64,000 bases of DNA. It comes from a virus. The stretch spans positions 7,824-71,823 of IMG/VR virus record IMGVR_UViG_3300033407_000001, one strand, 5' to 3'. Below are positions 1 through 63,685 of this stretch, one piece after another (positions within the stretch are counted from its first letter, which is position 1; every line of letters begins with the position of its first letter). The notes under the pieces are model-generated. The model worked only from the letters and a program-made list of their open reading frames with translations. It did not search any database and had not been told where the DNA came from. The position numbers were made by a program, and so were the translations under genes.

Positions 1-8
1 CCCATGAC

Positions 9-740
9 GTCTCGTTATCAAAGCCAACGAGCAAGCTATTTAAAGATGCGCTCGCATTCTGCGGAGGTTAGGTAGTCTCGTCATCAAAGCCAAACGAGCA
101 GGCTTTTAGGATTGGCAGGAGTGATGGCCAAATGCAGACAGCTGCGGTCTCGTTATTAAAGCCAACGAGCAAGCTTTTAAGATCAAATATCTCTGTGGAA
201 ATGTCGTAGAGTGTAGGGTCTCGTTATAAAAGCCGACGAGCAAGCTGTTTAAGCGAGGACCCTTGAGCAAGGCGATGTTGAGCGCATTGTCTCGTTATAA
301 AAGCCAACGAGCAAGCTGTTTAAGTCGTACTCAGGTAGGCACCGTCAACCTGCCAGTAGAGGTCTCGTTATCGAAGCCAACGAGCAAGCTATTAAGTTGG
401 TAGCGTTGCCTGGCTCGGACCGGACCGCAGGACGTCTCGTCATCAAAGCCAAACGAGCAAGCTGTTTAAAGGTGATGTCGTTGATAGCGCAAGGCTTTCG
501 ACTGGCCGTCTCGTTATTTAAGCCAACGAGCAAGCTATTTAAGATCGCTCTTCACCAGTGTGGAGTCTCGTCCTTTAAGCCGACGAGCAAGCTGTTCAAG
601 GAGCACGGGGGCTTCTGGCTCGTTGCCAACTACACCGGTCTCGTTCTTTAAGCCAACGAGCAAGCTGTTCAAGGTGGCGAGTGATGCTGATCAAAGCCAA
701 ACTTGTCTCGTCATCAAAGCCGACGAGCAAGCTATTCAAG
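9..740 (-). CRISPR. Type V CRISPR array, 11 degenerate 35-38 bp repeats and 10 spacers (21-37 bp); probably continues beyond the left edge
   Basis: Repeats start at 9, 75, 147, 218, 289, 362, 434, 508, 565, 638, 705. Plus-strand consensus GTCTCGTYATCAAAGCCRACGAGCAAGCTRTTYAAG; minus strand ends ...GAGAC with hairpin CTCGTY-9nt-RACGAG. Lies 41 bp downstream of the Cas12m-like gene on the same strand. Confidence 0.97.
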
Positions 741-781
741 GGCTATCCTAGAAACTATTCAATTATCAAAGAGTTATGTAG

Positions 782-2803
782 CTAATTTCGAGAGGTGGCT
801 TTTCGGACTCTTTTAGCAGGTTCTGCTGGTCCGATTGTTTCCTGGAAAATCCAATCATATTTAGTATTTACAGCCAATGATGGGATGCCTGACTTCCTCG
901 GGTCACCTGGGGTCTCGAAATCGGGTGGGGTTCCTCCGCCGCTGCGGCAGAGGTTGATAGCAGCATTCGCATCCTGGTCCCAGAAGGCACCGCAATCCGA
1001 GCACCAATGATTGATGGATAGCGCATGATCCCAATCGTTAATCACTCCACATTGATGGCACATAGCAGTTATGTGCTTAGAGTCCAGCGCTTCGAATATC
1101 GCGCCATGGTTTCCGCAGGCGTTATTGATGAGGATCCGCATTTTCCCAGGAGATGCGAGTGAGGCTTGTTTTCTGACGATTTTGCTGTTCAGCTCACCGT
1201 CGAAATTTTCCTTGGTCTTGAATTTTGCGTAATTTGTATTATCGACTACAACCTTGCCATATTCACGGGCAAGGAAGGCAGCAAATTTTCGATATGCGTC
1301 TTTCTTGCGTAGCTGGCAGCGGTACTCGATGCCGCGTGTCCTATTATATGCAGCCTTGTCCAGACTTCGCCAGGTTTCCAGTTCGCCAAACATGGCTTCA
1401 TCGCCATCGAAGCGATTTTTTCTCCAATGAAGAACGAATGACGCTAGCTTACGTTGAGATTCCCAGTTTCTAATCATACTGATGCCGCGCCATCCGGTTA
1501 GCCACTGCGGAAGGCTGTCTTGCTCTTTTTTATGACGAGACAGCCAGACCGCAAAAGACTCTTTAATCTGATTGAGTGCCAGGTCTCGCGCCGCCTGCTT
1601 TATGCACATCGTTTCCATCTTTTTGCTGTATTCACCCTCAAGGATGACTTCGCCGTGGCGACCATCGTCTCCGTACCAGTAGGCTGCGCGGATGTTATTG
1701 TCACCGACTCTTCTCCAGCCCAGATTCACTGCGACGACCCCAGGGCGCTGAACTTCTTTTGCCTTATCCTTGCTTAGAGTCAGTTGCAGGTAAAATCGGT
1801 AGGTGGTGCCTGATCTTTTCTGCACAATCTTGGCCCATTTGATTTTCACATCATCTGGGATACTCCTATGCATTGTAATGGGAAATTCCACCCATATTGG
1901 CTTCATGCGATTGGTTGGCGAAGATCCAACACGTATGCGCACCGTTGTTCGACAGTTTTTGCGCCGGAAGGCCCGGTCTGGGGTGCCATCCGGTCTATTC
2001 TTGGTCCAAGGATTGTCCTCCGGGGTCGAGAACGGTTTTGTGATCTGAAGGAATTTGCTACCACCCCATGCCTGCTCGGCGGTGATACCTTTCTGCAGTT
2101 GGACTGAGACAATACCGTCACCAGACCAATGTTTGAATTTTGGATCTTTCCTTCTCCCAGGAGCATATTGGGCCGCCCTAGCGGCTCTTTCGTTTGCCCC
2201 GTAGGTGCCCCAGCATATCTTATGCTGCTCCCTGAACTCATTGCGTATCCTTTTGATTTCCGCAGCGAGTTTCTTATTGTTGGCCGTTATCTTATCTTCA
2301 ATCTCTGGGCGCTGTTTGATTTCCTCGCGTATATCCTTTCGCTCAGAAGTAGCAACCTTCTTCTTAGCCGTAAGCTTTTTCTTGAGATCTTTTGCTCCCT
2401 TATTGGTCTTGTCGGCCTTGAGGATGGCCTTGAGTGATTTGATTTCTTCGGATAGCTCGTCGATCGTTGAATTCAACTCCTCCATGCGGAGGCTAGGGGC
2501 TTCACCTATGATTTCCCTGTATAGCTTCGTTGAGGCTCGATAGGCCTCAGTGAGCTTGTTCCGATGGTCGTGCCCCAGGCGCAGTTGATAGATGAGAGTG
2601 TGACCATTGCACAGGTCACCATCGGTGTCCTGATTACATTTTGGACAGTCGCTCTCCGGTCCCGCGAATGTCGGTCTCCCAAGGCGGAATTCAATAGTAT
2701 TTTCGACTGTTTTATGGCTTTCGATTTTGCAAATCGAACAGACCTGAATCAGTTCTTTTTTTGGATCTGGATGGTCTCCCCACCTGTGTTGATGTGTAGG
2801 CAT
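782..2803 (-). CDS. cas12m: Type V-M CRISPR effector, Cas12m-like (TnpB-derived; RuvC predicted inactive)
   Basis: RuvC-I VAVNLGWR (Asp replaced by Asn), RuvC-II VVVDNT (Asp for Glu), Zn finger CHQC...CSDC, RuvC-III DQDANAAINL, WGTY and GDGIVSVQLQ motifs, long Lys/Glu coiled-coil REC insertion. These match MmCas12m motifs as recalled (ALHLGWR, VLVDDT, GSGTIAVQLQ). Abuts the array. Confidence 0.85.
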   Translation of the reverse strand: MPTHQHRWGDHPDPKKELIQVCSICKIESHKTVENTIEFRLGRPTFAGPESDCPKCNQDTDGDLCNGHTLIYQLRLGHDHRNKLTEAYRASTKLYREIIGEAPSLRMEELNSTIDELSEEIKSLKAILKADKTNKGAKDLKKKLTAKKKVATSERKDIREEIKQRPEIEDKITANNKKLAAEIKRIRNEFREQHKICWGTYGANERAARAAQYAPGRRKDPKFKHWSGDGIVSVQLQKGITAEQAWGGSKFLQITKPFSTPEDNPWTKNRPDGTPDRAFRRKNCRTTVRIRVGSSPTNRMKPIWVEFPITMHRSIPDDVKIKWAKIVQKRSGTTYRFYLQLTLSKDKAKEVQRPGVVAVNLGWRRVGDNNIRAAYWYGDDGRHGEVILEGEYSKKMETMCIKQAARDLALNQIKESFAVWLSRHKKEQDSLPQWLTGWRGISMIRNWESQRKLASFVLHWRKNRFDGDEAMFGELETWRSLDKAAYNRTRGIEYRCQLRKKDAYRKFAAFLAREYGKVVVDNTNYAKFKTKENFDGELNSKIVRKQASLASPGKMRILINNACGNHGAIFEALDSKHITAMCHQCGVINDWDHALSINHWCSDCGAFWDQDANAAINLCRSGGGTPPDFETPGDPRKSGIPSLAVNTKYDWIFQETIGPAEPAKRVRKATSRN

Positions 2804-3423
2804 TATGCCACCGCCTTAGGCTTAGCAGGAGGCTGGTGACCAACCTCTATGAGTATCGACTCAGCGTAATCACCTATGCTGCTGGGTGGGGTATTGTAGA
2901 AGCCCATCTGGCAGATTTGCCTGAGGCTCTCGACGAGCTTGCTGTACTTCTCCTTGGCAGTTAAATCTCTGTCCTGAGAAAAGAGGATTCCGTTCTGCTT
3001 TGCAGCATTCCTGACAAGAGCAACCTGTGTCTGCTTGGACGGATGGTAGCCATGTTCGGAGCGATATTTCTCGACACTGATCAGTGTCGCTGCATAGATG
3101 GGTACGGCGTGCTTGTGGGCGCTGGCGTTAGCACGCATGATTTTGACGAACTCGCGAACAGCCCCCAGTCCGATGGCAACCATCTCATCATGGGTCATGA
3201 ACTGGTGAGCGGCATGGTAGTACTCGTACTCACTGGATTGAATACCAAAATGTTTGAGGGAAAATTGCCGAAAGGAAGCTGCCCCAGTCGTTCGCCACTC
3301 TTGAGATTCTTCAAGGGTGCGCATTTTACCCCATATTACAAAGAGTTCTGCTCGGCGAGCCTCTATAAGGTTGCGGATTTCTTCTATTTTGACTGTGAGG
3401 GCTTTTGATTTTTTGTCACTCAT
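2803..3423 (-). CDS. Hypothetical protein, probably co-transcribed with cas12m
   Basis: Stop overlaps the cas12m start; start moved to MSDKK (3423) because a TTGACAATT box lies at about 3471-3481. Confidence 0.7.
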   Translation of the reverse strand: MSDKKSKALTVKIEEIRNLIEARRAELFVIWGKMRTLEESQEWRTTGAASFRQFSLKHFGIQSSEYEYYHAAHQFMTHDEMVAIGLGAVREFVKIMRANASAHKHAVPIYAATLISVEKYRSEHGYHPSKQTQVALVRNAAKQNGILFSQDRDLTAKEKYSKLVESLRQICQMGFYNTPPSSIGDYAESILIEVGHQPPAKPKAVA

Positions 3424-5254: not shown

Positions 5255-5290
5255 AGTGAAAAGCCTGCTTGATGGCTTAGAAATCAAGAC
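5255..5290 (+). CRISPR. Solitary variant CRISPR repeat (unit A)
   Basis: AGTGAAAAGCCTGCTTGATGGCTTAGAAATCAAGAC; last 31 nt identical to 33075-33105 (minus) and 23/31 identical to the array consensus with a compensated stem; extended -10 TGGTAACGT at 5242-5250. Confidence 0.7.
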
Positions 5291-6262: not shown

Positions 6263-8018
6263 TTTTCACTGGTATGAACTGAAGCACCTTGGCTACGTCC
6301 GGTTCCTTAACTTCGAGTCCACGCTGCTTCATGAATGCTTCGGCGAGTTTCTTGGAGTTGTGCCCCTCGGTATTGCTGCGTGCGATGAGGCTTGCATTGG
6401 GATCTCTGATGCCTTGCATTTGAGATCTCTTCACGCCTAGGACGTCGGCAATGATCGGATCACTGCCAAATTCCGAGAGTAGGTAATAGGCCATGACTGG
6501 GTCTGGTTGACCATCCCTGTGGGCTCGCCCTGTACATTGATCGTGGACCCCTGGCGACCAGTCTAGCTCACCGAACACAACGGTTCTGCAGCAGTACTGC
6601 AGTCCATCCAATCCGGCGCCGGCACGGAGGGACATCATCAGAATTTTGCTTTCGCCCTCAACAAACCTTCGCTTGGATTCGATCTTCTGTGCCGTACTTT
6701 GCCTGCCCGTGTACATGGCCGGGTTGAGGTCTTTCAGCTTTGCCTGCCATATTCCATAAACCTCATGGTGCCATCCATATAGAAGAACGGATTCACCAGA
6801 TTCTACGAGTATTCTTACAAAGTCTGCAACATACGGCGCCTTCGCAAGGCCGGTGGCCTGCCTGAGTACGTTCGATAGCTGCTCTGCAGCCATCATCTTC
6901 ATGCCCTTCTTGGCTTCGCCTTGGGCAAGGATTATCTGGGCCAGCTCAGCCGCTGAGTCCTCAATTTTACTGAGTTCTTCAGTGTTGGCTTCAATGGCGT
7001 GGGGAATCTTAGTGAGGGGCTCAAGCTCACGGCCAACCTCGCTTCTAGTCCGCCTGATCATCAATCCGATTTCCCTGAGATAAGATCCAAAACCCTTTGG
7101 ATCTGTTATCGATGGTTTATCTCCAGATGATCCACTGCACCATTCTCTGAGAAATTCTGCGCGAGTCCCTAGTACGTCAGGAGCAATCGATGACATGACG
7201 TTAAAGAATTCTCCACCGTAGTTGTAAATCGGAGTCGCGCTCAATCCGACGCGAGTCCTGGAATGGCCGGATACGTGCGCCGCTGCAATAGTCTTCTGTG
7301 ACTCAGATCTGCGCAATTCTTGGCACTCATCGAAGATAACACTCTTGGTCACACCAGCGAGAGTCTCTGCCCAACCACGAAGTTTGTGGTAGTTGATGAT
7401 GATAACGTCAGGGAAGAGGACCTTTTTCTCTTCTTTGTTTTTACCCCTGCCGACGGTTACTTTGGTCATGTCGTACGGAGAACTCTTCTTTACGATATGA
7501 GTACGAAGTCCAGGAAGGAACTTGTTTACTTCACTCTCCCATTGCTTAGGAAGGTGAGTCAGCGTGACGACGAGCGCTGGTAAATTAGACGGGTCAGTGA
7601 AAATACACATGCCGGTGATCGTCTTGCCAAGTCCAAGATCATCAGCAACGAGAAGTCTGCCAGTTCGCATCGCAAGGGCGGCTGCTACCTTCTGGTATTC
7701 TCTCGGCGGTAAAGCCATTTCCATCTCTGGCGGCTCGTATCCATCGGCTAGGATATCTGCAATGGCTGAGTCCTTAGCTCTCTGTTCATCGGCTTTTTCC
7801 GTCAGAACCAGCTGATCATTGGCCTCGATCTCCATTGGATACCGAGACATGAACCACTCAAGCTCCCTTGAGTTGTCAGTGGTCGCAGATAGCCATTGTT
7901 CGCCATACTGGCCTTTGTCTATCTGTTTGAAGATTCTCTTAAGTCGGAGAGCCACTTGTGGCTCGCATTGTATGACCCAGGTATCTTTGACTAGTGCTAC
8001 TTTTCCGTACGTTCTCAA
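6225..8018 (-). CDS. SNF2/DEAD-like SF2 helicase
   Basis: ADDLGLGKT, FDECQELR, LSATPIYN, MSLRAGAGLDGLQ, DQCTGRAHRDGQ. Confidence 0.93.
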   Translation of the reverse strand: MRTYGKVALVKDTWVIQCEPQVALRLKRIFKQIDKGQYGEQWLSATTDNSRELEWFMSRYPMEIEANDQLVLTEKADEQRAKDSAIADILADGYEPPEMEMALPPREYQKVAAALAMRTGRLLVADDLGLGKTITGMCIFTDPSNLPALVVTLTHLPKQWESEVNKFLPGLRTHIVKKSSPYDMTKVTVGRGKNKEEKKVLFPDVIIINYHKLRGWAETLAGVTKSVIFDECQELRRSESQKTIAAAHVSGHSRTRVGLSATPIYNYGGEFFNVMSSIAPDVLGTRAEFLREWCSGSSGDKPSITDPKGFGSYLREIGLMIRRTRSEVGRELEPLTKIPHAIEANTEELSKIEDSAAELAQIILAQGEAKKGMKMMAAEQLSNVLRQATGLAKAPYVADFVRILVESGESVLLYGWHHEVYGIWQAKLKDLNPAMYTGRQSTAQKIESKRRFVEGESKILMMSLRAGAGLDGLQYCCRTVVFGELDWSPGVHDQCTGRAHRDGQPDPVMAYYLLSEFGSDPIIADVLGVKRSQMQGIRDPNASLIARSNTEGHNSKKLAEAFMKQRGLEVKEPDVAKVLQFIPVKNDATEETDSENY

Positions 8019-33019: not shown

Positions 33020-33184
33020 CAATTGTCAAGCTGGCCTAGGGTAGGTCGAGGGCGGAGTTGATTTTCTCTTCCTTGTCTTGATTTCTAAGCCATCAAGCAG
33101 GCTTTGCAGCTATTTATTGCTGAATGCTGCAATTGTCAAGCTGGCCTAGAGTAGGTCGATGGCGAAGTTAATTCGCTCTTCTTT
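33020..33184. repeat. Imperfect 55-bp direct repeat (33020-33074 and 33130-33184) bracketing solitary repeat unit B
   Basis: 48/55 identity at a 110-bp offset; each copy contains TTGACAATT; copy 2 encodes the recombinase C-terminus. Confidence 0.9.
33075..33110 (-). CRISPR. Solitary variant CRISPR repeat (unit B)
   Basis: GCTGCAAAGCCTGCTTGATGGCTTAGAAATCAAGAC; 33/36 identical to unit A; TTGACA (33134-33139)-N17-TAAATA directly upstream. Confidence 0.75.
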
Positions 33185-33718
33185 GAAACTCAGGTATTGG
33201 GATGTGGAGGTAATCCACTTGTGCCCAAGTGCTCCTTGGAGCTGCTTCAGATCACCATCAAGGAGGTCATGCATTCGATCGGCAAAGGTCTTGCGCATGC
33301 AGTGAGTCCCGAGAGTTCCGGTCATACCGATAGATTTAAATGCCTTATCGAAGATCCGCCACACCTGAACTCGTGATATCCTCTTGTGGGCGGTTGAGCA
33401 GAATAGAGGAGTCTCCCCCACACACCCTCCTATCTCCTCGATCCAAGCAGCAAGGGCAACCTTAGCCTTGGAGTTCAGCTTGACCGTCCTCCCCTCCCCC
33501 TTGCCTTTCATGGCAGACCGTCTTACAGAGACGGTATCGACAATTCGATCGAACTGAAATACATCAGACACATTGAGGGATAGAAGCTCACTGATGCGAA
33601 ATCCAGTCATCAAGCCGACCGTGAATAGGCAGGCATTCCTAACTCCATTGCTTCCGCAGTGGAGAGTCGCAGTAACCAATTCCGATTCCTGCTTTGTCAA
33701 TGGCCTGCATCCCTTCAT
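33146..33718 (-). CDS. Small tyrosine recombinase (catalytic domain only)
   Basis: RNACLF...TGFRISELLSL, HCMRKTF, LGHKWITSTSQY (R-H-R-H-Y catalytic set); class-B promoter. Confidence 0.92.
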   Translation of the reverse strand: MKGCRPLTKQESELVTATLHCGSNGVRNACLFTVGLMTGFRISELLSLNVSDVFQFDRIVDTVSVRRSAMKGKGEGRTVKLNSKAKVALAAWIEEIGGCVGETPLFCSTAHKRISRVQVWRIFDKAFKSIGMTGTLGTHCMRKTFADRMHDLLDGDLKQLQGALGHKWITSTSQYLSFKEERINFAIDLL

Positions 33719-45057: not shown

Positions 45058-45093
45058 GTCTCGTAATCAAAGCCAACGAGCAAGCTTGTTCAG
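45058..45093 (-). CRISPR. Solitary CRISPR repeat of the array type (unit C)
   Basis: Plus strand GTCTCGTAATCAAAGCCAACGAGCAAGCTTGTTCAG, 28/29 identical to array repeat 1; TTGACA (45136-45141)-N17-TGTAGT upstream; no second repeat nearby. Confidence 0.88.
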
Positions 45094-52092: not shown

Positions 52093-52362
52093 GGGTAATG
52101 TTGCTCATTATAAATGTCGGGGGAGGGTGGTTCCTCCCCCGGCGCCCCGCTTAAGCAATGGAAAACTCTAAGAGTTTTCTTTGCCGCGCAAGCGCTTGCG
52201 CTGGTACGATGTGATTCCACCGGGGCGGATAACACGCACCCATATTGATCGGCCTGCTCGCTGGCTTCGATGGCGAGACTGCCTACCTATAGAACACCTG
52301 AGCCAGAGTGAAGTTTCTGCGTTTTCGCTGAAATTCTGCGAGAGCTGAAGTGTTTATGTACC

Positions 52363-53799
52363 GTGAGCAATTCAATCACCAACAAGAACCCTTCCTTTTC
52401 TCTTTCCGACGCACCCGTGGGTGAGGTCCTATTCGACGCGGCGCGGCCAAAGCCGCTCGCACAAGAGGTCATTCCTGAGCGTGATGGCTCTTGGAATTCT
52501 CCAGGCGTTTCCGCCGAGGGCGCCGCTCGCGCCAAAGAAGACGAGCAAGCTGCTACTGCTGCGGGCTTCACCGTCGCCCCGCCGATCTACGAGATTGGCT
52601 CCCTGGTCAATCAGACCGGAGTTGAGAATTTCCGCGCATCTCGCGAGGAGTTCGAGGCAATGCCTACCGCTTTTGAGGCGTGCAGCAAGCTGGCCGCGCA
52701 AGTCCAGGCCGAGCAACGTCGCGACATCGTTATCGAAGTTCCGAATCTTCGGATGCTCGATGATGGTCGCCTTACTCGCGGCACGGGTGCCGGCATGCCC
52801 ATGAGCGAACGTGCCATGACCGGCCTGGCAACCCATGTTACCCCCGGTGGTGGTGGGTACCTTCGGGAGTGCCCTACGGAGCTTCGCGCTCTCAACGTCA
52901 ATCACTGGTGTGAGAACGGGTATCGTGAAGATGTCCGCGCGACCAATCGACTCATGCGCGAGTGGCAAGAGCAGGGCTGCTTTGATGCTCAGCCCGCCCC
53001 GGTGATTGTCCCTCGCGAGATCACTCTTCGCACCCGTATCAACGGGTCCGATGGTCGCCGCGAGAATTTCGCCGTGGTCGGCCCTCGCTACTCTGCGCAT
53101 GACATTGACGCCATTGCCAATCAGGTGATGTCCAGCGAGGCGATTCCCGCCGATGCTCGCGCCAACGTCACCTATGACGGGTACCGCTCGCGCATTGACG
53201 TGCTGTTTCACAGCAATGTCCAGCCGGAGCGAGTCGTCGCTGGCGAGATTTTCAAGGCCGGAATCATGCTGAAGACTGCCGATGATGGCAGCGGTTCGAT
53301 TCAGATTGCTGCCCAGCTATGGCGCAACCTGTGTCTCAATCTCATCATTGTGGACCACGCCAGAGACATGGTGATGCGCCGCTCGCACCGTGGCGACGGA
53401 ATCGCCGATGCTGTCAATATTGGCATCCGGGACGCCATGAAGAAGGTGGAGTATTTCTGCCAAAAATGGAGCGAGGCAACCCTGGAGAACGTCCTGGAGA
53501 AGTACGGATGCGCCGATATCGAATCCGTGTTCCGTGGACTCATCTTCAACAAGGTGGTCAACATTGGTGGCGTTGCCCCCCAGGCCATGCACGCTCGCCT
53601 GATGAGGGCATGGGAAGCTGAGCCTGGCAATGACAAGACGGCTATCGTCAATGCCATCACTCGCTCGGCTCACACCGAGACCTGGAAGCGCTGGACCATC
53701 GTTGAGGAGCTTGAGACCCTCGGCGGGGCGATGCTCTTCGCCAAAGATTGGAAGGTGTCCATCCCTGAAAAGGTGGACCTGGCCAAGCTGGGCTACTAG
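52363..53799 (+). CDS. DUF932-like protein
   Basis: FAVVGPRY, LKTADDGSGSIQI...WRNLCLN; GTG start fixed by class-B promoter. Confidence 0.65.
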   Translation: MSNSITNKNPSFSLSDAPVGEVLFDAARPKPLAQEVIPERDGSWNSPGVSAEGAARAKEDEQAATAAGFTVAPPIYEIGSLVNQTGVENFRASREEFEAMPTAFEACSKLAAQVQAEQRRDIVIEVPNLRMLDDGRLTRGTGAGMPMSERAMTGLATHVTPGGGGYLRECPTELRALNVNHWCENGYREDVRATNRLMREWQEQGCFDAQPAPVIVPREITLRTRINGSDGRRENFAVVGPRYSAHDIDAIANQVMSSEAIPADARANVTYDGYRSRIDVLFHSNVQPERVVAGEIFKAGIMLKTADDGSGSIQIAAQLWRNLCLNLIIVDHARDMVMRRSHRGDGIADAVNIGIRDAMKKVEYFCQKWSEATLENVLEKYGCADIESVFRGLIFNKVVNIGGVAPQAMHARLMRAWEAEPGNDKTAIVNAITRSAHTETWKRWTIVEELETLGGAMLFAKDWKVSIPEKVDLAKLGY

Positions 53800-53916
53800 T
53801 CCAGGCGGGACGGCGGGGGCTCAGGCCCTCGCTTTTCCTTTGGTGCCATGAGTTTTCCGATTAGATCTGCCTGCGCTTTCGCTGAAATTCCATAGGAGCT
53901 GAAGTGTTTACTAGGC

Positions 53917-54123
53917 ATGAGCAACAAACAAAAATTCATAGTCGAGGTTAGGGAGGTCCACGTCGCGACCCACGAGGTTGAGGCCATGTCTGTCGATCAG
54001 GCCATCCACCTTGTGAAGCGAGGATTCTCGGAGGCGGTCGATACTGAGTACAGCCACACGCTCCCGGAGGGGACGTGGGTTGTCACGGATGACGATGGCG
54101 CCGTCCTGAAAGATCAGGAGTAG
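53917..54123 (+). CDS. Small hypothetical protein
   Basis: Class-B promoter. Confidence 0.75.
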   Translation: MSNKQKFIVEVREVHVATHEVEAMSVDQAIHLVKRGFSEAVDTEYSHTLPEGTWVVTDDDGAVLKDQE

Positions 54124-54127
54124 GACC

Positions 54128-54298
54128 ATGAGTGACTACAGAGCAAATCGCACCGCCGCCTTGCTTGTCTTTGGTGAGCATGTCACTGAGAAGCAAATCG
54201 AGAAAGCCCTGGCGACTTTGGAGCATTTGCTGGAGCGTGAGCCACGAGTCGAGGATTACGACAATCGGTATGCCGACCCGGTCCTCTACTTCCCATAG
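54128..54298 (+). CDS. Small hypothetical protein (56 aa, not in ORF track)
   Basis: ATG 4 nt after the previous stop; followed by a hairpin and GAGTTTTCC. Confidence 0.55.
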   Translation: MSDYRANRTAALLVFGEHVTEKQIEKALATLEHLLEREPRVEDYDNRYADPVLYFP

Positions 54299-54402
54299 CA
54301 GCCCTAAGCCGAAAGGCTTGGGGCTTTGCCCTATGGGCCTGAGTTTTCCTGTATCCTCGGCGGTTCGCTGAAATTCTGCGAGAGCTGAAGTGTTTATTGG
54401 CC

Positions 54403-54564
54403 ATGAGCAAGCAAACCATCAAGACCATTTCTCGCGTCGAGGTCATTCTCGCTAAGGCTAAGGCTCCCTGTGGAACCTATCCTGGCGCGAATCGCTCGCG
54501 CAAATTCGTGGACCGCAAGCGCAAGGCAAACAAGAATGCCTGTCGCGGCAAGGTGAAATTCTAG
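54403..54564 (+). CDS. Small basic protein (53 aa, not in ORF track)
   Basis: Class-B promoter; MSKQTIK...RKRKANKNACRGKVKF. Confidence 0.7.
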   Translation: MSKQTIKTISRVEVILAKAKAPCGTYPGANRSRKFVDRKRKANKNACRGKVKF

Positions 54565-54587
54565 CGTTGCTGAGGTGTTTATAATAT

Positions 54588-54884
54588 ATGAGCAACAAAC
54601 AAAATAACCCTGCCAACCCTACCGTCGAACTCGATGGCCTGGAAGTGGAAATCACCAGAGGTGTCGATGGCGCCCTGGTGGTATCTATCTCCGGTCCTGG
54701 TGATGACGACACGACCGCGCTCGGCTCGCCGGACATCCGTGTCTGGCTGAACGATGCCCTTATCTACGCCCACGGGGAGACCGGCGATGATCTGCAATGG
54801 ACGCCACCGACCGCGCCAGATCAGATTGTCGTCAATCCAGACCCGAGGGCGATCTCAAAGAAGCATTACGGAGATGACCAATGA
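54588..54884 (+). CDS. Hypothetical protein
   Basis: Class-B promoter. Confidence 0.75.
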   Translation: MSNKQNNPANPTVELDGLEVEITRGVDGALVVSISGPGDDDTTALGSPDIRVWLNDALIYAHGETGDDLQWTPPTAPDQIVVNPDPRAISKKHYGDDQ

Positions 54885-55222
54885 GTGAGCATCGAGAGAT
54901 CAATTGTCCCATTTGTCCTGGCCCGATATGTAAGCTGGACGGGAGCGTGGCCCCTGATTACGGGGATAAGGTCTACGTCTTGACCTACACTCACAAGCAC
55001 GGTGAAGATCATGCAGTCCATATAACCTATGAAGGTGCCCTCAAGGCGGCATATGCGCTGGCCGATGAGCGTGTCGATGAGTCCTGGTGTGATTCCGAGA
55101 ACGAGGCGAAATTCAAGGGGATTGAGGATAAGACAGCAGCCCTCGCCTTTTTCCATGACATCGAGAACGAGACCAGCTACGGGGAGATACTGGAGATCTA
55201 CGAAACGCCACTGAGGGACTAG
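54881..55222 (+). CDS. Hypothetical protein
   Basis: ATGA-coupled to the upstream gene. Confidence 0.7.
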   Translation: MSEHREINCPICPGPICKLDGSVAPDYGDKVYVLTYTHKHGEDHAVHITYEGALKAAYALADERVDESWCDSENEAKFKGIEDKTAALAFFHDIENETSYGEILEIYETPLRD

Positions 55223-55325
55223 TTCCCTCGGCCCTTCGGGGCCTATGTATTGGAAAACTCTATGAGTTTTCTACTATTAGCAACAGAAAGTCGCCAAGGG
55301 AGATGATCTCCCCGGCGACTTGGCA

Positions 55326-55679
55326 CTACTGTGCGGCTTGGTTTTCGACTGCTTTCCGTGGCTTCGCGAGGCGACGCAAGCGGTCTTTCGCAGCCGAGGT
55401 GAGACGATATTGGCCGTCTCCGATCTCCTCGGGATGCTCAATCCACTTGGCTTTCACCAGGCGACGAACGGTGTTGCGAACTCGTGAATTTGCCTTGGCT
55501 TTGCCGAGGCCCTTCCATTTACATTCAACGATCAGTTCTTTGATGGTCAAGATGGGGCGGCCTGGTTTGGCGAGCGCTTTAACGATTTTCAGTTCGTTGT
55601 CGCTTAGCTCCGAGTAGTGGAGCTTCAGCTCCCCCCCTCGCTGCCCTTGCTTCGATTTCAGCTCGGTTTGTTTACTCAT
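55326..55679 (-). CDS. Winged-helix DNA-binding protein (paralogue of 56049..56750)
   Basis: SRVRNTVRRLV...IGDGQY; class-B promoter. Confidence 0.72.
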   Translation of the reverse strand: MSKQTELKSKQGQRGGELKLHYSELSDNELKIVKALAKPGRPILTIKELIVECKWKGLGKAKANSRVRNTVRRLVKAKWIEHPEEIGDGQYRLTSAAKDRLRRLAKPRKAVENQAAQ

Positions 55680-55920
55680 AATTCATAAACACCTATTGGT
55701 TCTCATAATTTCACAATCATTGAGGAATTATAAAAAGTCTAACATTATTACGGCTCTAGTCAATGCAAAGTACAGATCGAGGCTACTTTATTTTTACAGG
55801 CTCATTTAACCCACAGCCTGTGGACATAAAAAAATAGATCTCCGGTAACATTACTAGTTTGAGAAACCTTCAATGAAGTCAACGCAGTTAGATCTTTATC
55901 CACAGATACATCCACAATGC
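55680..55920. promoter_or_regulatory. AT-rich region with DnaA-box-like 9-mers (candidate origin or control region)
   Basis: TTATCCACA at 55896-55904; near-boxes at 55807, 55819 (reverse) and 55908; two TAGATCT. Confidence 0.4.
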
Positions 55921-56048
55921 CTCGTTTTTGCTGGACAAATAGGTGCCTGGATTTTGTTGACCACGATCTCTGGCTGATGCTAGGTAGGTTCTCGGGAGAT
56001 AGTCCGCCGGATACTGAAATTCTGTCGGTTCTGAGGTGTTTACTGAAC

Positions 56049-56750
56049 ATGAGCAAGCAACTGCATGTCATTGATAATGGTGTGGTATTCAACTCTGGGC
56101 AGAGGGGTAAGCCTCTCGATTTAGAGTTCAGCCAACTGAACAAGGATGAGCAGGCTGTTTTGCAGACGCTCCGCCAGTCCGGGGATCGAATGAAGATCAT
56201 ATCCATCATGGAGGCGCTCGAATGGGACATCCCAGTTGTGCCGTTCTCGCCAGAGTATTGCAAAGTCAAAGGGTATAGCAGGGTTCGCAACGCTGTGCGG
56301 CGCCTTGTTCGCTCTGGGATGATCATGCACAGTAGTGCCATTGGTGACGGAACCTATATGGTTCCCGATATCGTTCCGGTTGCTACCATTGCCCCGGTCA
56401 AGCTCTTGCCGGTTGCCAATCCCCTGCCGGTTGACATCGATAGCATCACCAAAAGGGCCATGGCGGCTGGCAGGAAGAGTGACTGTGCATTCTACAATGC
56501 CTGCCTAGATCAGGCTATCAGTAACAAATGGGATGGTTTCTCGTGCCATGGATGTAGGGCTTACGCTGAGCCCGATGAGTTCCAGAAGGAACAGAACATT
56601 CTTGGGCTTCGCGCCGTTCAGACAGCCGCAGATCTGGTGGCCAAACATGGCAAGGTCAACCGGATTCGTGGCGTGAAGCCTGGCGCAGATGCAAAGCGTA
56701 ACTCCGGCGAGATGGTGAGTCTGTCTGAAGTCATGGCGATGACGGACTAG
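56049..56750 (+). CDS. Winged-helix protein with C-terminal Cys-cluster domain
   Basis: SRVRNAVRRLV...IGDGTY; C..Y..C...SCHGC; class-B promoter. Confidence 0.75.
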   Translation: MSKQLHVIDNGVVFNSGQRGKPLDLEFSQLNKDEQAVLQTLRQSGDRMKIISIMEALEWDIPVVPFSPEYCKVKGYSRVRNAVRRLVRSGMIMHSSAIGDGTYMVPDIVPVATIAPVKLLPVANPLPVDIDSITKRAMAAGRKSDCAFYNACLDQAISNKWDGFSCHGCRAYAEPDEFQKEQNILGLRAVQTAADLVAKHGKVNRIRGVKPGADAKRNSGEMVSLSEVMAMTD

Positions 56751-57015
56751 CTACAGCTGGGGCAATCGTCCGAGCTTGAGATAGAAGATCCCGCATATCG
56801 CAACGACGAGCACTGCCCAGAGGATCTTCTTCGACTTGGTGATCTGAACATTGGGAAGATAGGCATCTATCAGGCTTCCCAGCGACCATCCAAGTAGGCC
56901 GCTGAGCAGGGATATAATGATCAGTCGAGTATCTGGATCCATAGTGGATCCTTTTACCCTTGGGGATCTGAAAACTCTATGAGTTTTCCTGTCTTGGGCC
57001 GGAGGCCGCGATGGC

Positions 57016-57270
57016 TCAGCTCTCAACGGGGGAGATGATGATTTTCACCAGGATGAGGTCAAGGTCATCAAGGTCATCTCCATAGATTTCCTCTTCTTTG
57101 CACATACCAAGGTGTTCTTTGGCTTCCTCGGGTGTGTCAAACAGATGATCGAATGGGTGCTCATATCTCATGGGATCGTCCAGGGGTATGACGTAAAGTG
57201 GTTGGCCATCGCCACAGACAAGCTGGCGATAGGCATAGTGTGTAGTTGATGGCTGTTTTGCATTGCTCAT
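57016..57270 (-). CDS. Hypothetical protein
   Basis: Class-B promoter (divergent pair). Confidence 0.75.
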   Translation of the reverse strand: MSNAKQPSTTHYAYRQLVCGDGQPLYVIPLDDPMRYEHPFDHLFDTPEEAKEHLGMCKEEEIYGDDLDDLDLILVKIIISPVES

Positions 57271-57348
57271 GGCTGGTAAACACCTCAGCTAGCCCAGAAT
57301 TTCAGTGAATTGTCTGAAATTCTATCGGCTCCCAGGTGTTTACTAAAC

Positions 57349-57984
57349 ATGAGCAATGCAATCGACAACAAGAGTATCGTCCGCGACCTTCGCAATGATA
57401 CCGTGGACGTTCAGTCCCGGCACATCGACTGGGCAGCAACACTCGGCGAAGACCTGGAGGGCTGGGAAGCCTTCGAGGCTGTTGATTGCGACGAGTGCGA
57501 CCGGGTCACGGTCCTTACAACGGCCATGGGTGGCGATGAGCATCGCTACATTGAGCCAGAGTTTGAGAATGAAGACGGCGAAGTGGTCGAGAATGAGTGC
57601 ATGGGGCATCTCTACTTTGAAGGCCCAATGATGAATAGCTTTTACCCTTGCCCCTTCAACGATACCGACGAAGCGGCACGGGCGATTGCCAGCCTTCCCC
57701 TCTGTGTGATTGTCCTGCAAGACGGCGAGACCGGCTTTGCCCTCACGGGTGGCGGCATGGACTTGAGCTGGGAGATTTGCGACGCCTACATCCGTTGCGG
57801 TTTCCTTCCCCCATTCCAGTTCTGTTGCCTACCAGACATGGCCGGCAAAGACAGGGAGAGCCGAACTCAGCTCATTCTCACAGCCTGCCAGCGCACAGCC
57901 GATGTCCGGGGGAGCCAAGCCGAGTACCGCCGCATCGAACTTAAGCAGATGGCTACCAAGTACAAGAATCCAAACGCCGCGTAA
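57349..57984 (+). CDS. MGE-type hypothetical protein (LTGGGMDLSWEI..AY motif)
   Basis: Class-B promoter. Confidence 0.8.
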   Translation: MSNAIDNKSIVRDLRNDTVDVQSRHIDWAATLGEDLEGWEAFEAVDCDECDRVTVLTTAMGGDEHRYIEPEFENEDGEVVENECMGHLYFEGPMMNSFYPCPFNDTDEAARAIASLPLCVIVLQDGETGFALTGGGMDLSWEICDAYIRCGFLPPFQFCCLPDMAGKDRESRTQLILTACQRTADVRGSQAEYRRIELKQMATKYKNPNAA

Positions 57985-58160
57985 ACGGCGAGTGGTTGCT
58001 CTAGGTGGCCGGGGAATTCTCCTCGGCCACCGTTTTTGCGTGTGCTCCGATCGGAAAACTCTATGAGTTTTCCTTGTGACAGAAAAGAACTGCCCCCCAA
58101 GGCTATGCTGAACACAACGGCCGAATTGCCACTGATTCAACCCTGGAGGGCAGAAAAGCT

Positions 58161-58580
58161 TTATGAACAGTTGACTGGACAAAAGAGGCCAGAGCTGTAG
58201 CGCCCCGACTGGTATTCCACCCGGTCTGCTGGCATGGCCACAAGTCTTTCAGGGCCATTCTCGCCGGCTATTGTGCCAATTTCAACACAATAGCCATAAT
58301 CATACTCTTTGGGAGCGCGAGTGCGCAGGAGCCCATATTTCTTAGAGTGGTCGATGACCTGCCATTTGCCACTCTTGCCACCGTCGCCAAATAGTGAGCG
58401 GAGACGTTGCTCCATCTCAAAGTAGCCTGGCGATGTCGTTGCCATCGCCTTAGAGGAGAAGGCGCCATCATATCGGCCCAGTTCGCCGATTTCTTGCAGA
58501 GCCCGTACTGTGCTCATATGAACATCAGCGCTTGCTATGAGTGCCTCCTGGTCAATTTCAAATCTGATTATTCTGAACAT
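58161..58580 (-). CDS. Hypothetical protein
   Basis: Class-B promoter; start MFRII. Confidence 0.75.
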   Translation of the reverse strand: MFRIIRFEIDQEALIASADVHMSTVRALQEIGELGRYDGAFSSKAMATTSPGYFEMEQRLRSLFGDGGKSGKWQVIDHSKKYGLLRTRAPKEYDYGYCVEIGTIAGENGPERLVAMPADRVEYQSGRYSSGLFCPVNCS

Positions 58581-58658
58581 GCATAGTAAACACTTCAGGA
58601 ATCTGAAAATTTCAGCAGATTCTTTGAAATTACACAAAGGCTGAGGTGTTTACTGGGC

Positions 58659-59024
58659 ATGGGCAATAGAGCCCACCCGAATCAACCGGCCCCGCGAGGG
58701 TGTCCGACCGAAAGTAGGTTGCTGATGTTTGTGATGGATGGGGATGTAATCCCGGTTAGTCTTGATGAGTCGATTGATCGAATCGTTGCCTTACAGAATG
58801 AGCGCAAGCTCCTGAATGCGAAGATCGACAATCTCAAAGCAGTGGCAAAGCTTCACTTGAAGAAGCTTGAGGTCACTGAGTACGAAGCGCCCTCTGGCCA
58901 CTCTGCGAAGTATTCGTCTAAGCAGATGCCAAAGTATGACAAGGAGGCAATCCTTGAGCTTACAGGTGAGGACTTCGCCCTCTGTGTGAGCTTCACGAAC
59001 GTCACAGCGTTCACGGTCAAGTAG
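58659..59024 (+). CDS. Hypothetical protein
   Basis: Class-B promoter. Confidence 0.72.
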   Translation: MGNRAHPNQPAPRGCPTESRLLMFVMDGDVIPVSLDESIDRIVALQNERKLLNAKIDNLKAVAKLHLKKLEVTEYEAPSGHSAKYSSKQMPKYDKEAILELTGEDFALCVSFTNVTAFTVK

Positions 59025-59124
59025 GCCAGTCAGGCGGGGAGAGATCCCCGCCCTCTTTGCTTGTGTGACATTGGAAAACTCAATGAGTTTTCCGACTCCC
59101 CGGCGAGGCCGAGGCCCCGAAGGG

Positions 59125-59586
59125 TTAGGCCCATACGATGAGCCTGTCACCTGCCCGCTCGCACGTTGCTAGCAATTGCTCGCAGCGCTGGCGGAGATAG
59201 CCGCCCTCGCGTCCCATGGTGATGAATCGATCCGAGTTCTCAAGGCCCATGGACTCGGCCCGCTCGTCATTGCTCATGGGAGCATCGTGGTTGCGCTCCA
59301 CGTCCCACAGACGACGGCGCAGCATTGGTGCCAGTTCTTTGGCAGGAATCTCCCCACAGTAGTCAACCGTGAGATTGAGCCAGCGCAAGAGATCGAGCGC
59401 GTTGCCATTGGCCATGTTGATCTCCGCATCGCAGATATCACACGAGTACATTTCTGGTGTGTCCTGGTCAAGCTTCCAGGCAGCATCGCAATCGTCGCAC
59501 CATCGGCGCGAGCAATCACAGGACTCAGCGGGCTCAGTGTAGCCCTTGGACTCGTTCTTGACTCCGATGAAGAATGTTATGCTCAT
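59125..59586 (-). CDS. Hypothetical Cys-rich protein
   Basis: Class-B promoter; hairpin after the stop. Confidence 0.78.
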   Translation of the reverse strand: MSITFFIGVKNESKGYTEPAESCDCSRRWCDDCDAAWKLDQDTPEMYSCDICDAEINMANGNALDLLRWLNLTVDYCGEIPAKELAPMLRRRLWDVERNHDAPMSNDERAESMGLENSDRFITMGREGGYLRQRCEQLLATCERAGDRLIVWA

Positions 59587-59664
59587 ATATTGTAAACACC
59601 TCAGCTCTTGCAGAATTTCAGCGAATAGTCTGAAATTCCAGCTGCCCTCAAGTGTTTACTAGGC

Positions 59665-60180
59665 ATGAGCACAATAACCGCACGATACGTCGATACCTGT
59701 CTGTCTGATTACCTTCAGGACAGTTACTCTCGCCCAGGCCAGGCTCTTTGCCTTGCATCTCTTGGGTGTTCCATTGAGCAGACCGTTGAGGAGTTGCTCA
59801 ATTCCCTTGATGATTCCGACAGCGGGTTCCCTGAGACCATCGGCAACGATGAGATCAAGGAGGTACTGGCCGAGGCTATTGAGGCTATCGATCTCCGTTA
59901 CATCGATGAGAACGGCAACCGATGCCAGACTCCTCCCGAGGAAGATCGTGATTGCGAGGAGCCGATGCTCTATGTCCTCATTGAGTGGGATGCCAGTGTG
60001 GTCAAGCTCCGCATGACCGTCGATGTCGAATACCAAGCGAATGGAGTGGACTCGTATGAACTCAAGCTCATGCTTGAAGATGCGATCCGCCAGGCCTCGG
60101 CCAATGGTGCTCTTACTGGCGGCACGGGTGCCACCGTAACATCATGGGGAGCGAGCGCCGAGGTAGTACCCGAGGAGTAG
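59665..60180 (+). CDS. Acidic hypothetical protein
   Basis: Class-B promoter; UUCG hairpins at 60181-60200. Confidence 0.8.
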   Translation: MSTITARYVDTCLSDYLQDSYSRPGQALCLASLGCSIEQTVEELLNSLDDSDSGFPETIGNDEIKEVLAEAIEAIDLRYIDENGNRCQTPPEEDRDCEEPMLYVLIEWDASVVKLRMTVDVEYQANGVDSYELKLMLEDAIRQASANGALTGGTGATVTSWGASAEVVPEE

Positions 60181-60200
60181 CCCTTCGGGGCTTCGGCCCC
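60181..60200 (+). terminator. Overlapping UUCG hairpins followed by the GGAAAACTC palindrome
   Basis: CCCTTCGGGG / GGGGCTTCGGCCCC; no U-tract. Confidence 0.55.
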
Positions 60201-60286
60201 CCTGGGAATTGGAAAACTCTAAGAGTTTTCCGACCTACGCAAACGCTTGCGCGGCGAGGAGTTACCCTGCCGCGCAGCCCGCCCGC

Positions 60287-60697
60287 CTATTCCTTGAGTA
60301 GCGCATTGCATTTGTCGCAATTGGCAACGAAGTGCCGATCGAGCCAGGCAACAGTTTCGCCCTGTGTCTCATTGCCGCACAGTGGCAAGCTATCGTTGTC
60401 CATGTCGGGTATATGGCGCGGAGCGTCATATACTTCGACTCGGAAATAGCCCTCGGGGTCAATCCAAACGTCAACAGGGCTGGAGAGTGTCCCGCAGGTA
60501 TCTGTTTCCTCAATTTTCTCAAGCACGGTTTCGGCAGTCAAGAATTGAGGTTCACACCCGAACACCTCACGGGCTAGCTCGGCGTAGCGTTCTTCAGGCA
60601 TGGCGTTGATCGCCTGCTCGACCGTGAATGGTCGTTCCTGGCTGAACTCGTCGTCGGAGATGAAGAATTCGGGGCTGAATGATAGTGAGTAGCTCAT
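60287..60697 (-). CDS. Hypothetical protein
   Basis: Class-B promoter. Confidence 0.78.
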   Translation of the reverse strand: MSYSLSFSPEFFISDDEFSQERPFTVEQAINAMPEERYAELAREVFGCEPQFLTAETVLEKIEETDTCGTLSSPVDVWIDPEGYFRVEVYDAPRHIPDMDNDSLPLCGNETQGETVAWLDRHFVANCDKCNALLKE

Positions 60698-60818
60698 ATA
60701 TAGTAAACACTTCAGGACTTACGGAATTTCAGTAAAAGATCAGCAAACGCAGTGCTTTATGAGTTTTCCAATTCGGAACGCAAAAACCGCCCCGAAGGGC
60801 GGCGCGGTCTGGCTCCTG

Positions 60819-61034
60819 CTATGCTGGGAGTAGCAGATGGCCCTGTTTGCGAATCTTCCCAGCTTCCACCAGGGTTCCGACGATGGTATTGAACTGCTCA
60901 AGAGAGCATCCGATGCCCATGAGAGTCGCGTACAGATGGCCGGCTGGTAGGCCCTGCTCGCCCAATTCCTCGACTGTTTCAACAATTGCCGAGGCGATTG
61001 CCATGAGTGCTTTGATTGCTTGTGTGTTGCTCAT
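60819..61034 (-). CDS. Small winged-helix-like protein
   Basis: G.LYATLMG..CSLEQFNTIVGTLVEAGKI; class-B promoter. Confidence 0.7.
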   Translation of the reverse strand: MSNTQAIKALMAIASAIVETVEELGEQGLPAGHLYATLMGIGCSLEQFNTIVGTLVEAGKIRKQGHLLLPA

Positions 61035-61112
61035 ATTATGTAAACACTTGGGGACTGATAGAATTTCAGCGAAAAGAGTGAAATTCTAGCCTGGCTGGCG
61101 TGTTTATTAACC

Positions 61113-61697
61113 ATGAGCAAAACCACCAAAACCATCCGAATCCGCCTCGATGATGATGCTGAGTCGCCGCGTGAATATGCCGGCGAATTCAGCACCATGG
61201 CTTGCTGGCACAACCGTTACAACCTTGGCGACGTACAGCCCCGCGAAGAGCCGCAAGAATGGCTCAAGGAGAATGCGCCCAAGGGCTCCGTGGTTCTTTG
61301 CCTGTATCTCTACGATCACAGCGGAATTACCATGAGCACTGGCCCGTTTTCTTGCGGCTGGGATTCTGGCCCTGTTGGCTACATTGTGTCAACGCCAGAG
61401 CAGATTCGCGCAACCTTTATGGTCAAGCGTATCACCAAAAAGATTCGTGAGCAGGTCACGAAGAATCTCGAAAATGAGGTCAAGGTTTACGCGGAATATC
61501 TCGAAGGCAATGTCTATGGTTTTGAAATCATTGAGACAACCGAGTGTGACTCATGCCAACACGGGGAGCCAGAAGTGATTGACTCGTGTTGGGGATTCAT
61601 TGGCAACGATTGGGCGCTTGAAGCTATGGCCGACCATATCGACCCGGAGCTTCGCCCTCAGCTTGAGCAGGCTTGGGAAAATAGGTTCGACGGCTAG
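61113..61697 (+). CDS. Conserved phage hypothetical protein (SPRE...H.RY.LGD; YLYDHSG...WDSG motifs)
   Basis: Class-B promoter. Confidence 0.82.
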   Translation: MSKTTKTIRIRLDDDAESPREYAGEFSTMACWHNRYNLGDVQPREEPQEWLKENAPKGSVVLCLYLYDHSGITMSTGPFSCGWDSGPVGYIVSTPEQIRATFMVKRITKKIREQVTKNLENEVKVYAEYLEGNVYGFEIIETTECDSCQHGEPEVIDSCWGFIGNDWALEAMADHIDPELRPQLEQAWENRFDG

Positions 61698-61791
61698 GCC
61701 CTTCGGGGCTGCGGCCCCAGGTCGCCTGAGTTTTCCTGTAAGAGAATGAGATCTCAGTGAAATTCCACAAGAGCTGAGGTGTTTACTAGAT

Positions 61792-62097
61792 ATGAGCAAC
61801 ACCGACGAACAGCAAGAAACAATCGAAGAAGAGGCACGCCAGATCATGGTGGAGATCCTCTATCATCACTTCGGCGATGATTTCATTACATCGGATCGCG
61901 TTGACGGTTCAGTCTGCGGCGGAGATCCGCACGGATGGACTCAGGGCGCGGTGGCAACAATTCTCACTGAGAGCTGCTTGCCAGATCCGGTCTATGGTCC
62001 TGTTGAGGCATGGTGCCGAGTATTCGAGGATGCTGCCGAGCGTGGCCTACACTGCGAGCCAATCAATGGGGCGGTGATCGGAGTCTACCCCCTCTAA
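61792..62097 (+). CDS. Hypothetical protein
   Basis: Class-B promoter. Confidence 0.78.
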   Translation: MSNTDEQQETIEEEARQIMVEILYHHFGDDFITSDRVDGSVCGGDPHGWTQGAVATILTESCLPDPVYGPVEAWCRVFEDAAERGLHCEPINGAVIGVYPL

Positions 62098-62189
62098 GGG
62101 AAGGGGCTTCGGCCCTGTTTGCCCTGAGTTTTCCTTGAACTTATTGATTCACAGCTGAAATTCTAGCGCTTCTGAAGTGTTTACTAGAT

Positions 62190-62435
62190 ATGAGCAACAC
62201 CGGAAATCAATTCAGACTTATCGATCGTGGCAGCGGAGCATGGTCCGCTATCCTGAAGCGTAAGGCTGGAAGCCTTGCCGTACGGGTCATCACCGAACAG
62301 GGTGGCTATCGCATCGACTTTACCAAGAGCGTCGGCGCGGCTTGGCAACCCTGGGAGCCTATCGCGACCACTGTCTTTTCTACCTTCGACGAAGCCGAGA
62401 AGGCTCTACGAAGTTCTGTTACCGGGCTCCTGTAA
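62190..62435 (+). CDS. Hypothetical protein
   Basis: Class-B promoter; UUCG hairpin at 62440. Confidence 0.75.
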   Translation: MSNTGNQFRLIDRGSGAWSAILKRKAGSLAVRVITEQGGYRIDFTKSVGAAWQPWEPIATTVFSTFDEAEKALRSSVTGLL

Positions 62436-63680: not shown

Positions 63681-63685
63681 ACACT

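Follow-up and report, generated by a model that had tools for sequence, protein, structure and literature searches.

We examined a 64,000-nt window (positions 7824–71823 of the IMG/VR record IMGVR_UViG_3300033407_000001, 199,636 bp, linear, CheckV 92%), in which a minus-strand gene at 782–2803 encodes a 673-aa protein, P0001, resembling the type V effector Cas12m. With a probability of roughly 80%, this phage locus consists of a Cas12m effector with an N-D-D RuvC triad, a co-directional CRISPR RNA (crRNA) array directly downstream and no adaptation genes, and would act by binding DNA without cutting it. What the analysis shows is membership of the Cas12m family, the identity of three catalytic-site residues, an intact zinc finger, a conserved crRNA scaffold and the presence of the same locus in a second phage.

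A preliminary description of this DNA, made from the letters alone, had called the protein Cas12m-like, and this was borne out at the levels of sequence and fold. In a phmmer search against the PDB, the top solved relatives of P0001 were all Cas12m (23vw, E 9e-56; GoCas12m 8pm4, 9e-38), with further matches to Cas12m2 (8hio/8hhl, 2e-30) and 23vu (3e-18). A literature search returned no paper tied to 23vw or 23vu. Equating 23vw with PmCas12m does not work, since the latter is N-D-D and 23vw has Asp and Glu at RuvC-I and RuvC-II. TnpB and Fanzor structures reached only E 5e-4 to 5e-3, confined to the C-terminal RuvC-III/zinc-finger part. An exhaustive HMMER search with P0001 recovered 1315 cluster representatives at E<=1e-30 and, among the matches listed, the best of these align to approximately residues 70–620, close to the full length. 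The closest relative is a sister phage protein, P0002 (53–54% identity), and the next one is at 37%; identity to the non-phage relatives found is <=37%, mostly ~30%.

The AlphaFold2 model of P0001, built on 96 homologs, has a predicted local distance difference test (pLDDT) score of 86.9 and a predicted TM-score (pTM) of 0.84. It includes four long REC helices (residues 66–192), the counterpart of the Cas12m 'roof', and a long helical insertion in RuvC (390–514). Residues 66–195 contain 21 Lys and 11 Arg, giving the roof a net charge of +10. The zinc-finger cysteines of the TNB domain, C582, C585, C601 and C604, are conserved in the alignment of the 96 homologs (three invariant, C582 in >=90%), as is the H312/R313 pair, whose equivalent contacts the crRNA in Cas12m2 (PMC10442227). 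A profile search and phylogeny against Cas12m and TnpB, together with a structural comparison with MmCas12m, had been proposed as checks. In the former, P0001 groups with Cas12m and the TnpB models remain far below their cut-offs; in the latter, Cas12m2 is the best fold match (Foldseek, 8hhl, TMt 0.81), next to GoCas12m (8pm4, 0.79), with Cas12f and TnpB at <=0.6.

Could the locus nevertheless be an IS200/IS605-type TnpB with an omega RNA rather than a CRISPR effector? Database names point that way, since Pfam recognises in P0001 the Cas12f1-like TNB domain alone, a C-terminal domain of TnpB/Cas12f, and the PHROG label is 'transposase'. However, scores for TnpB structures and models are poorer than those for Cas12m by 50 orders of magnitude, and the NCBIfam TnpB models gave 43 bits against cut-offs of 100–425, over the C-terminal 130 aa only. 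Furthermore, the REC coiled coil specific to Cas12m is present in the model, a genuine repeat-spacer array lies behind the gene, and the profile of the Y1 transposase (TnpA) had no match at E<=1 in the record. We therefore give this identity virtually no chance and consider it refuted by sequence, fold, array and the missing Y1 transposase. Sequence, fold, crRNA scaffold and lack of TnpA agree that P0001 is a member of the Cas12m family.

The three RuvC residues were numbered in the HMMER alignment and then checked against those named by Omura et al. (PMC10442227). At RuvC-I, N360 (VAVN360LGWR; codon 1724–1726, minus strand) aligns with His317 of Cas12m2 and with an Asp in the DED-type 23vw. 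At RuvC-II, D521 (KVVVD521NT; 1241–1243, minus strand) aligns with Asp485 of Cas12m2 and with a Glu in 23vw. At RuvC-III, D611 (WDQD611ANAA; 971–973, minus strand) aligns with Asp579 of Cas12m2 and is invariant in 96 aligned members. All three of the states first read from the letters, Asn for Asp at 1724–1726, Asp for Glu at RuvC-II and a retained Asp at RuvC-III, proved correct.

P0002 of the sister phage is N-D-D as well, and more distant relatives are N-E-D or D-E-D. Among the 154 nearest cluster representatives, 110 carry D-E-D and 13 N-D-D; the remainder have N or H at RuvC-I and nearly any residue at RuvC-II, while the RuvC-III Asp is present in 154/154. In a FastTree phylogeny of 163 sequences, P0001 and P0002 form a supported pair with P0115 (N-T-D) as sister, N-D-D has at least 7 origins and non-Asp RuvC-I residues require at least 24 changes. 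With at least 24 losses of the RuvC-I Asp on this tree, its substitution is a recurrent trend of the family and no peculiarity of this phage. Wu et al. 2022, as cited in PMC10442227, distinguish Cas12m clades with HEK/HQK, HDD, DED/NED and DED/DND/NED triads.

That type V-M effectors carry such substitutions and act by binding, as the preliminary description had stated, is documented for N-D-D proteins. Bigelyte et al. 2024 (PMC11013384) tested eight Cas12m (four D-E-D, two H-D-D and two N-D-D): none cut its target and none showed collateral activity, PAM (protospacer adjacent motif)-dependent binding was observed for six, and Escherichia coli was protected from plasmids and phages through Cas12m binding. 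The authors concluded that D-E-D, H-D-D and N-D-D orthologs are all binders of double-stranded DNA (dsDNA) without cleavage. PmCas12m (bioRxiv 10.64898/2026.03.26.714355), whose triad is N372/D494/D581, binds YTN-flanked DNA and is nuclease-dead. Because N-D-D Cas12m proteins bind PAM-flanked dsDNA and leave it uncut, P0001 would, by analogy, most plausibly silence by binding without cutting. A residual nuclease, for which Asn at RuvC-I and Asp at RuvC-II would be enough to cleave DNA or RNA, might be imagined from the acidic RuvC-II residue and the RuvC-III Asp kept in P0001, and from the single Mg2+ that the Cas12m2 pocket still holds (PMC10442227). It appears very unlikely given that none of the eight proteins above cleaved, including the two N-D-D and the four D-E-D, that PmCas12m, likewise N-D-D, is nuclease-dead, and that conversion of Cas12m2 from H-D-D to D-E-D did not bring back cutting (PMC10442227).

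The array begins 41 nt behind the cas12m stop codon, on the same strand. In the record it extends from 8563 to 6122 and comprises 35 repeats (R) of 36–37 nt and 34 spacers (S) of 16–41 nt, mostly 35–37 nt, 6/34 being short (16–31 nt). The window contains 11 of the 35 repeats, that is the Cas-proximal part with R01–R11 and S01–S10 (1–740, minus strand; repeats from 740 to 9), and the array runs past the window start to a distal end that adjoins a DnaJ-kinase gene. The repeats are unusually polymorphic, with variation located in the 5' seven nt and four nt of the loop. We aligned 49 repeat copies (35 from the array, five solitary ones described below and nine of the sister phage) and found 98.3% pairing in a stem (-23..-18 with -3..-8) and a pseudoknot (-29..-26 with -14..-17). 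In three of the pairs both partners are changed, and 0/500 shuffles and no slid register come close. This register is that reported for the PmCas12m crRNA (bioRxiv 10.64898/2026.03.26.714355). At the pseudoknot pair 11-21, U-G, C-G and U-A were seen in the 49 copies and C-A never; since the U-G variants pair only in a minus-strand transcript, the array is oriented with cas12m. The record contains no copy of the repeat core in reverse complement, so that there is no sign of a trans-activating crRNA (tracrRNA) or anti-repeat. Likewise, no array leader was recognisable, a sigma-70 and terminator scan around the cas12m locus gave nothing above chance, and Rfam had no match in window 1–900.

As a separate observation, one repeat-spacer unit, R19+S19 (record 7166–7236; window -657 to -587, 71 bp), is absent from an otherwise identical ENA contig. 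The unit sits between the sole two neighbouring identical repeats of the array, and the difference may reflect either recombinational loss or gain, or assembly collapse.

A second phage (JGI and ENA contigs L004–L007) shows the same succession of genes, with IF3, dCMP deaminase, a 211-aa open reading frame (ORF), cas12m, array and DFP, and its array holds 17 repeats of the same repeat family. This conservation bears on whether the locus is a decaying relic, no longer functional. Decay might be read from the polymorphic repeats, three of which have a broken stem or 3' end, from the truncated spacers, and from the lack of a recognisable leader and of adaptation genes in the record. Against it, two phages at 53% identity both retain an uninterrupted 673-codon frame and the synteny, the repeat variation spares paired positions or is compensatory, and conservation extends to the zinc finger and to the crRNA-contacting H312/R313. 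A relic is therefore highly improbable in our opinion.

The genomic context is that of a phage. As the preliminary description had it, the genes upstream of cas12m are ordinary phage-type genes (dCMP deaminase, IF3-like, SNF2 helicase and thymidylate synthase), and no cas1, cas2 or cas4 is found in the window. The latter negative could be extended to the whole 199,636-bp record, where the Cas1, Cas2 and Cas4 Pfam profiles had no match at E<=1 and the controls responded. The record also encodes a portal protein (E 5e-67) and a head maturation protease (E 9e-48). The locus is located in a bona fide phage genome, without an adaptation module within 199.6 kb. The ENA contig k141_280646 (ERZ27256991; 286,833 bp), identical over 20.6 kb except for R19+S19, carries an identical cas12m and continues beyond the record end, the record being a fragment of a larger genome. 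New spacers would presumably depend on host machinery. The repeat had no match in 185,579 species-representative genomes and none in IMG/VR; accordingly, no matching host adaptation system or array able to lend Cas1-Cas2 was found among these species genomes. In JGI metagenomes, the repeat pattern occurs in the sister phage only.

The following steps are modelled on characterised N-D-D, H-D-D and D-E-D Cas12m. P0001 would process the array into crRNAs of ~50–60 nt with a 5' repeat handle and a 3' guide; the loaded protein would bind YTN/TTN-flanked dsDNA tightly without cutting and, once bound, would keep any sequence matched by the 34 spacers from being transcribed or replicated. The likeliest targets would be competing phages, or mobile elements of another kind that share the host; host genes are possible. 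P0001 very probably binds the five solitary repeat units too, and such binding may add a second function, exerted on transcripts of the phage itself or directed against near-kin phages.

What the spacers match was searched for at several levels. When compared to the 199.6-kb record of the phage itself, the 34 spacers gave nothing above chance, and the whole array had no match in GenBank phages and PLSDB plasmids (blastn, E<=1). Exact 24–25-nt prefixes of S02, S04 and S06 had no match in IMG/VR, and no cross-targeting was detected between the arrays of the two sister phages and the available contigs. A search of 401 Myxococcota genomes with the whole array yielded no true protospacer either; short matches in these genomes were rejected as protospacers, all lying within repeats or across a spacer-repeat junction. 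One of them, a 22-mer across the S02/R03 junction (window 560–600), is exact in at least 7 of the 401 genomes; it contains repeat sequence and is no protospacer, and it probably coincides by chance with a gene segment that is presumably conserved there. As to the host, the adenylosuccinate synthase of the phage is 40–49% identical to Actinomycetota and Myxococcota enzymes alike, and the G+C content of the spacers is 52.8% compared to 50.8% for the phage. The earlier proposal that the array silences host or competitor genes rather than cutting them can therefore be kept in part: silencing by binding is what the N-D-D homologs best suggest, whereas the nature of what is silenced finds no support in 34 spacers for which these searches gave no target.

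Several points weigh against the reading of the locus as a binding, non-cutting Cas12m system without its own adaptation module. No protospacer was found, and the PAM and the target class are therefore not established. Omura et al. (PMC10442227) state that triads other than H-D-D might act differently. The polymorphism of the repeats and the 6/34 short spacers could represent partial decay of the array. The negative result for adaptation genes covers the record; of the ~87 kb outside it, 1.4 kb beyond the array-side end are visible. Finally, the sole public run with this DNA is a soil metagenome, and RNA runs number 0.

Beyond the array, five solitary repeats are dispersed in the record, four of them in the window and one at record position 126481. 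Repeat A (5255–5290, plus strand) has the stem CTTGAT/ATCAAG with loop, pseudoknot and 3' GAC kept, and is antisense to the adjacent genes. Repeat B (33075–33110, minus strand) is the same variant as A and lies behind a TTGACA-N17-TAAATA element. Repeat C (45058–45093, minus strand) is of the array type, is located in a strand-switch region and is preceded by TTGACA-N17-TGTAGT. Repeat D (52244–52279, plus strand), with the stem CTCGCT/GGCGAG, lies in the 5' leader of a conserved gene for a 478-aa protein. A palindromic promoter-region motif precedes it by 65 nt, and a 91%-identical relative is without this repeat. The altered stems, CTTGAT/ATCAAG or CTCGCT/GGCGAG, thus remain paired by compensation.

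The palindrome itself, GAAAACTC-N3-GAGTTTTC, occurs in 8 plus-strand copies in window 52161–63753 versus 0 expected. The copies inspected are intergenic and upstream of plus-strand genes, one being that before repeat D. Similar copies precede repeat C, and relatives possess the motif as well; a role as promoter or operator in this phage family is probable.

Comparison with related sequences informs on the sequence following each solitary repeat, where a guide would be expected. Units A and D are absent from relatives. In the sister phage (L119:2380–2737, minus strand, compared to window 58010–58090, minus strand), we observed a clean 51-nt indel made of 15 nt and one repeat. This insertion sits between the palindromic motif and a conserved hairpin, at a place where the phage of the window has no repeat, and the 'guide' of the sister unit is there native sequence with TTC before it. 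Since units are gained or lost between relatives, the 'guide' is the native flanking sequence. Repeat B (window 33075–33250, minus strand) was observed between two diverged copies of a sequence, with 7 differences in 54 nt, the upstream copy being behind TTC. These copies correspond to the 3' end of a tyrosine-recombinase gene and a TTGACA promoter element, and the 'guide' of B is a diverged copy of the TTC-flanked sequence 110 nt upstream. Altogether, in 4/4 comparisons the counterpart of the 'guide' that lacks the repeat has TTC, CTC, TTC or TTT before it, all four flanks being compatible with the YTN/TTN PAMs of known Cas12m.

These units raise the possibility that immunity against competitors is not the main job of the system: Cas12m on solitary units could regulate or mark the phage's own transcripts, or guides made of native flanks could hit near-kin phages without the insertion. 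Retention of the scaffold in all five solitary repeats through compensatory stem changes, the promoter-like elements before three units (the TTGACA-N17 -10 pair for B and C, the palindrome for D), the gain and loss of units between relatives and the flanks of the four empty counterparts are consistent with such a role. Nevertheless, no guide of a solitary unit has a good target in the 199.6-kb record, and in the match near repeat B, 5 of the first 20 nt are mismatched. The sample of four flanks is moreover small, T-rich flanks being common between genes, and the 34-spacer array of unrelated sequences would be left unexplained. We hold this alternative to be possible, on the less likely side; it is compatible with a Cas12m system that binds array-specified targets, and the two are not exclusive.

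A more specific and more doubtful proposal is that Cas12m also uses hard-wired single-guide modules. A lone repeat inserted just 3' of a YTN would turn the native downstream sequence into its guide, and the complex might then bind the repeat-less allele of co-infecting kin or tune the phage's own transcripts. The same geometry is known from TnpB and its omega RNA, for which the flank of the element serves as guide to target the empty allele flanked by a PAM/TAM (TAM, transposon-adjacent motif).

Features next to and within the effector gene set this lineage apart. An upstream ORF (P0155, 206 aa; 2803–3423, minus strand) has a stop codon overlapping the cas12m start (TAATG), and is more conserved between the two phages than Cas12m (65% versus 53% identity). 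It had no Pfam or PHROG family, and a structure search gave a weak likeness to DUF3102/ParB-N-type proteins. P0155 may be an accessory of the module, translationally coupled to cas12m. A cluster of N-terminal residues, C22, C25, C53, C56, C65 and H68 (2600–2740, minus strand), flanks the first WED strand in the model, where it is predicted with low to moderate confidence. P0001 and P0002 share its pattern (C-x1-2-C, then C-x2-C, then C-x2-H), which is missing from P0115 and other Cas12m. The cluster is a candidate additional zinc-binding module.

Other relatives were also noted. P0115 (674 aa, N-T-D; L118:3900–7830), the nearest relative outside the phage pair, is encoded next to a 54-repeat array on a 25-kb contig with an integrase; its repeats are polymorphic too, with the same stem-plus-pseudoknot design. 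In IMG/VR, 21 contigs (L090–L110, 7–210 kb) encode Cas12m homologs, and the array mostly starts within ~200 nt downstream of the homolog. Their triads are mostly D-E-D, with N-G-D in three, and two are without the RuvC-III motif. The 478-aa protein encoded downstream of repeat D (window 52363–53799, plus strand) gave a weak DUF932 match and has >200 metagenomic relatives at 44–91% identity, on contigs of up to 298 kb. The protein is a marker of an extensive family of big phages from soil and sediment, of which two lineages only carry this Cas12m. With a phage family this large and one close Cas12m relative, the module is a sporadic accessory.

The closest characterised systems are PmCas12m (bioRxiv 10.64898/2026.03.26.714355) and the N-D-D pair of Bigelyte et al. 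(PMC11013384), which belong to the same family with the same triad and, as here, have a single crRNA, no tracrRNA and no adaptation genes nearby. They share the crRNA register (stem -23..-20 with -3..-6, pseudoknot -28..-26 with -15..-17). These proteins are bacterial and of ~600 aa, whereas P0001 is phage-encoded, has 673 aa and carries an N-terminal Cys cluster and a C-terminal tail. Cas12m2 of Mycolicibacterium mucogenicum (8hhl/8hio, PMC10442227) and GoCas12m (8pm4) have the REC coiled-coil roof, the RuvC insertion and the TNB zinc finger of P0001, but differ by an H-D-D triad and by ~21% identity over the structural alignment; the roof is Lys-rich in P0001 compared to the Arg-rich pocket described for these two.

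Novelty of a phage-borne Cas12m, as implied in the preliminary description, was overstated. The catalytic-site variant N-D-D and phage-borne Cas12m were both known before, as were phage CRISPR systems without adaptation genes. Landfill viromes (PMC12607003, 2025) contain virus-encoded effectors grouping with Cas12m/V-U1, and nearly all CRISPR-bearing phages in that study are without adaptation genes. A preprint of September 2026 (bioRxiv 10.64898/2026.09.14.751636) describes MvCas12m in the myxophage MV-1. In both cases, as here, a phage Cas12m stands beside an array without cas1/cas2/cas4, and no spacer targets were found. MvCas12m differs in having 610 aa, a D-E-D triad and 8 spacers, against N-D-D, 34 spacers, polymorphic and solitary repeats for the present locus. 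Huge phages also encode the compact type V effectors Cas12j (CasPhi) and Cas12l (Cas-lambda), with arrays and no adaptation module. These are thought to counter competing elements, and they are active nucleases of other Cas12 subtypes, whereas P0001 would not cut. TldR, a TnpB-like nuclease-dead repressor, is a RuvC-inactivated, RNA-guided DNA binder, as predicted for P0001, and is employed in gene regulation, but its guides are of the omega-RNA type and not CRISPR-linked. Single repeats outside arrays in viral genomes have counterparts in solitary repeat units, crRNA-like regulators and Racr RNAs. Racrs act as inhibitors of Cas proteins of the host; in the present case, the phage itself encodes the cognate Cas protein.

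The system is real and well preserved. Specific to its lineage are the N-terminal Cys cluster, the polymorphic repeats, the co-translated conserved upstream gene and the five dispersed solitary repeats with native-flank guides. The effector by itself will not surprise a specialist. It adds a well-preserved, divergent phage N-D-D member to a family that is of value as a compact, naturally occurring 'dCas', and in which the RuvC-I aspartate has repeatedly been lost, on at least 24 occasions among 163 sequences. The locus raises the questions of which advantage a CRISPR system that is non-cutting and has 34 guides offers to a large phage, and why single repeats have come to be dispersed time and again in the genomes of such phages. 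If the single-guide modules were real, a nuclease-dead CRISPR effector would be a device for kin competition or gene regulation built into the virus.

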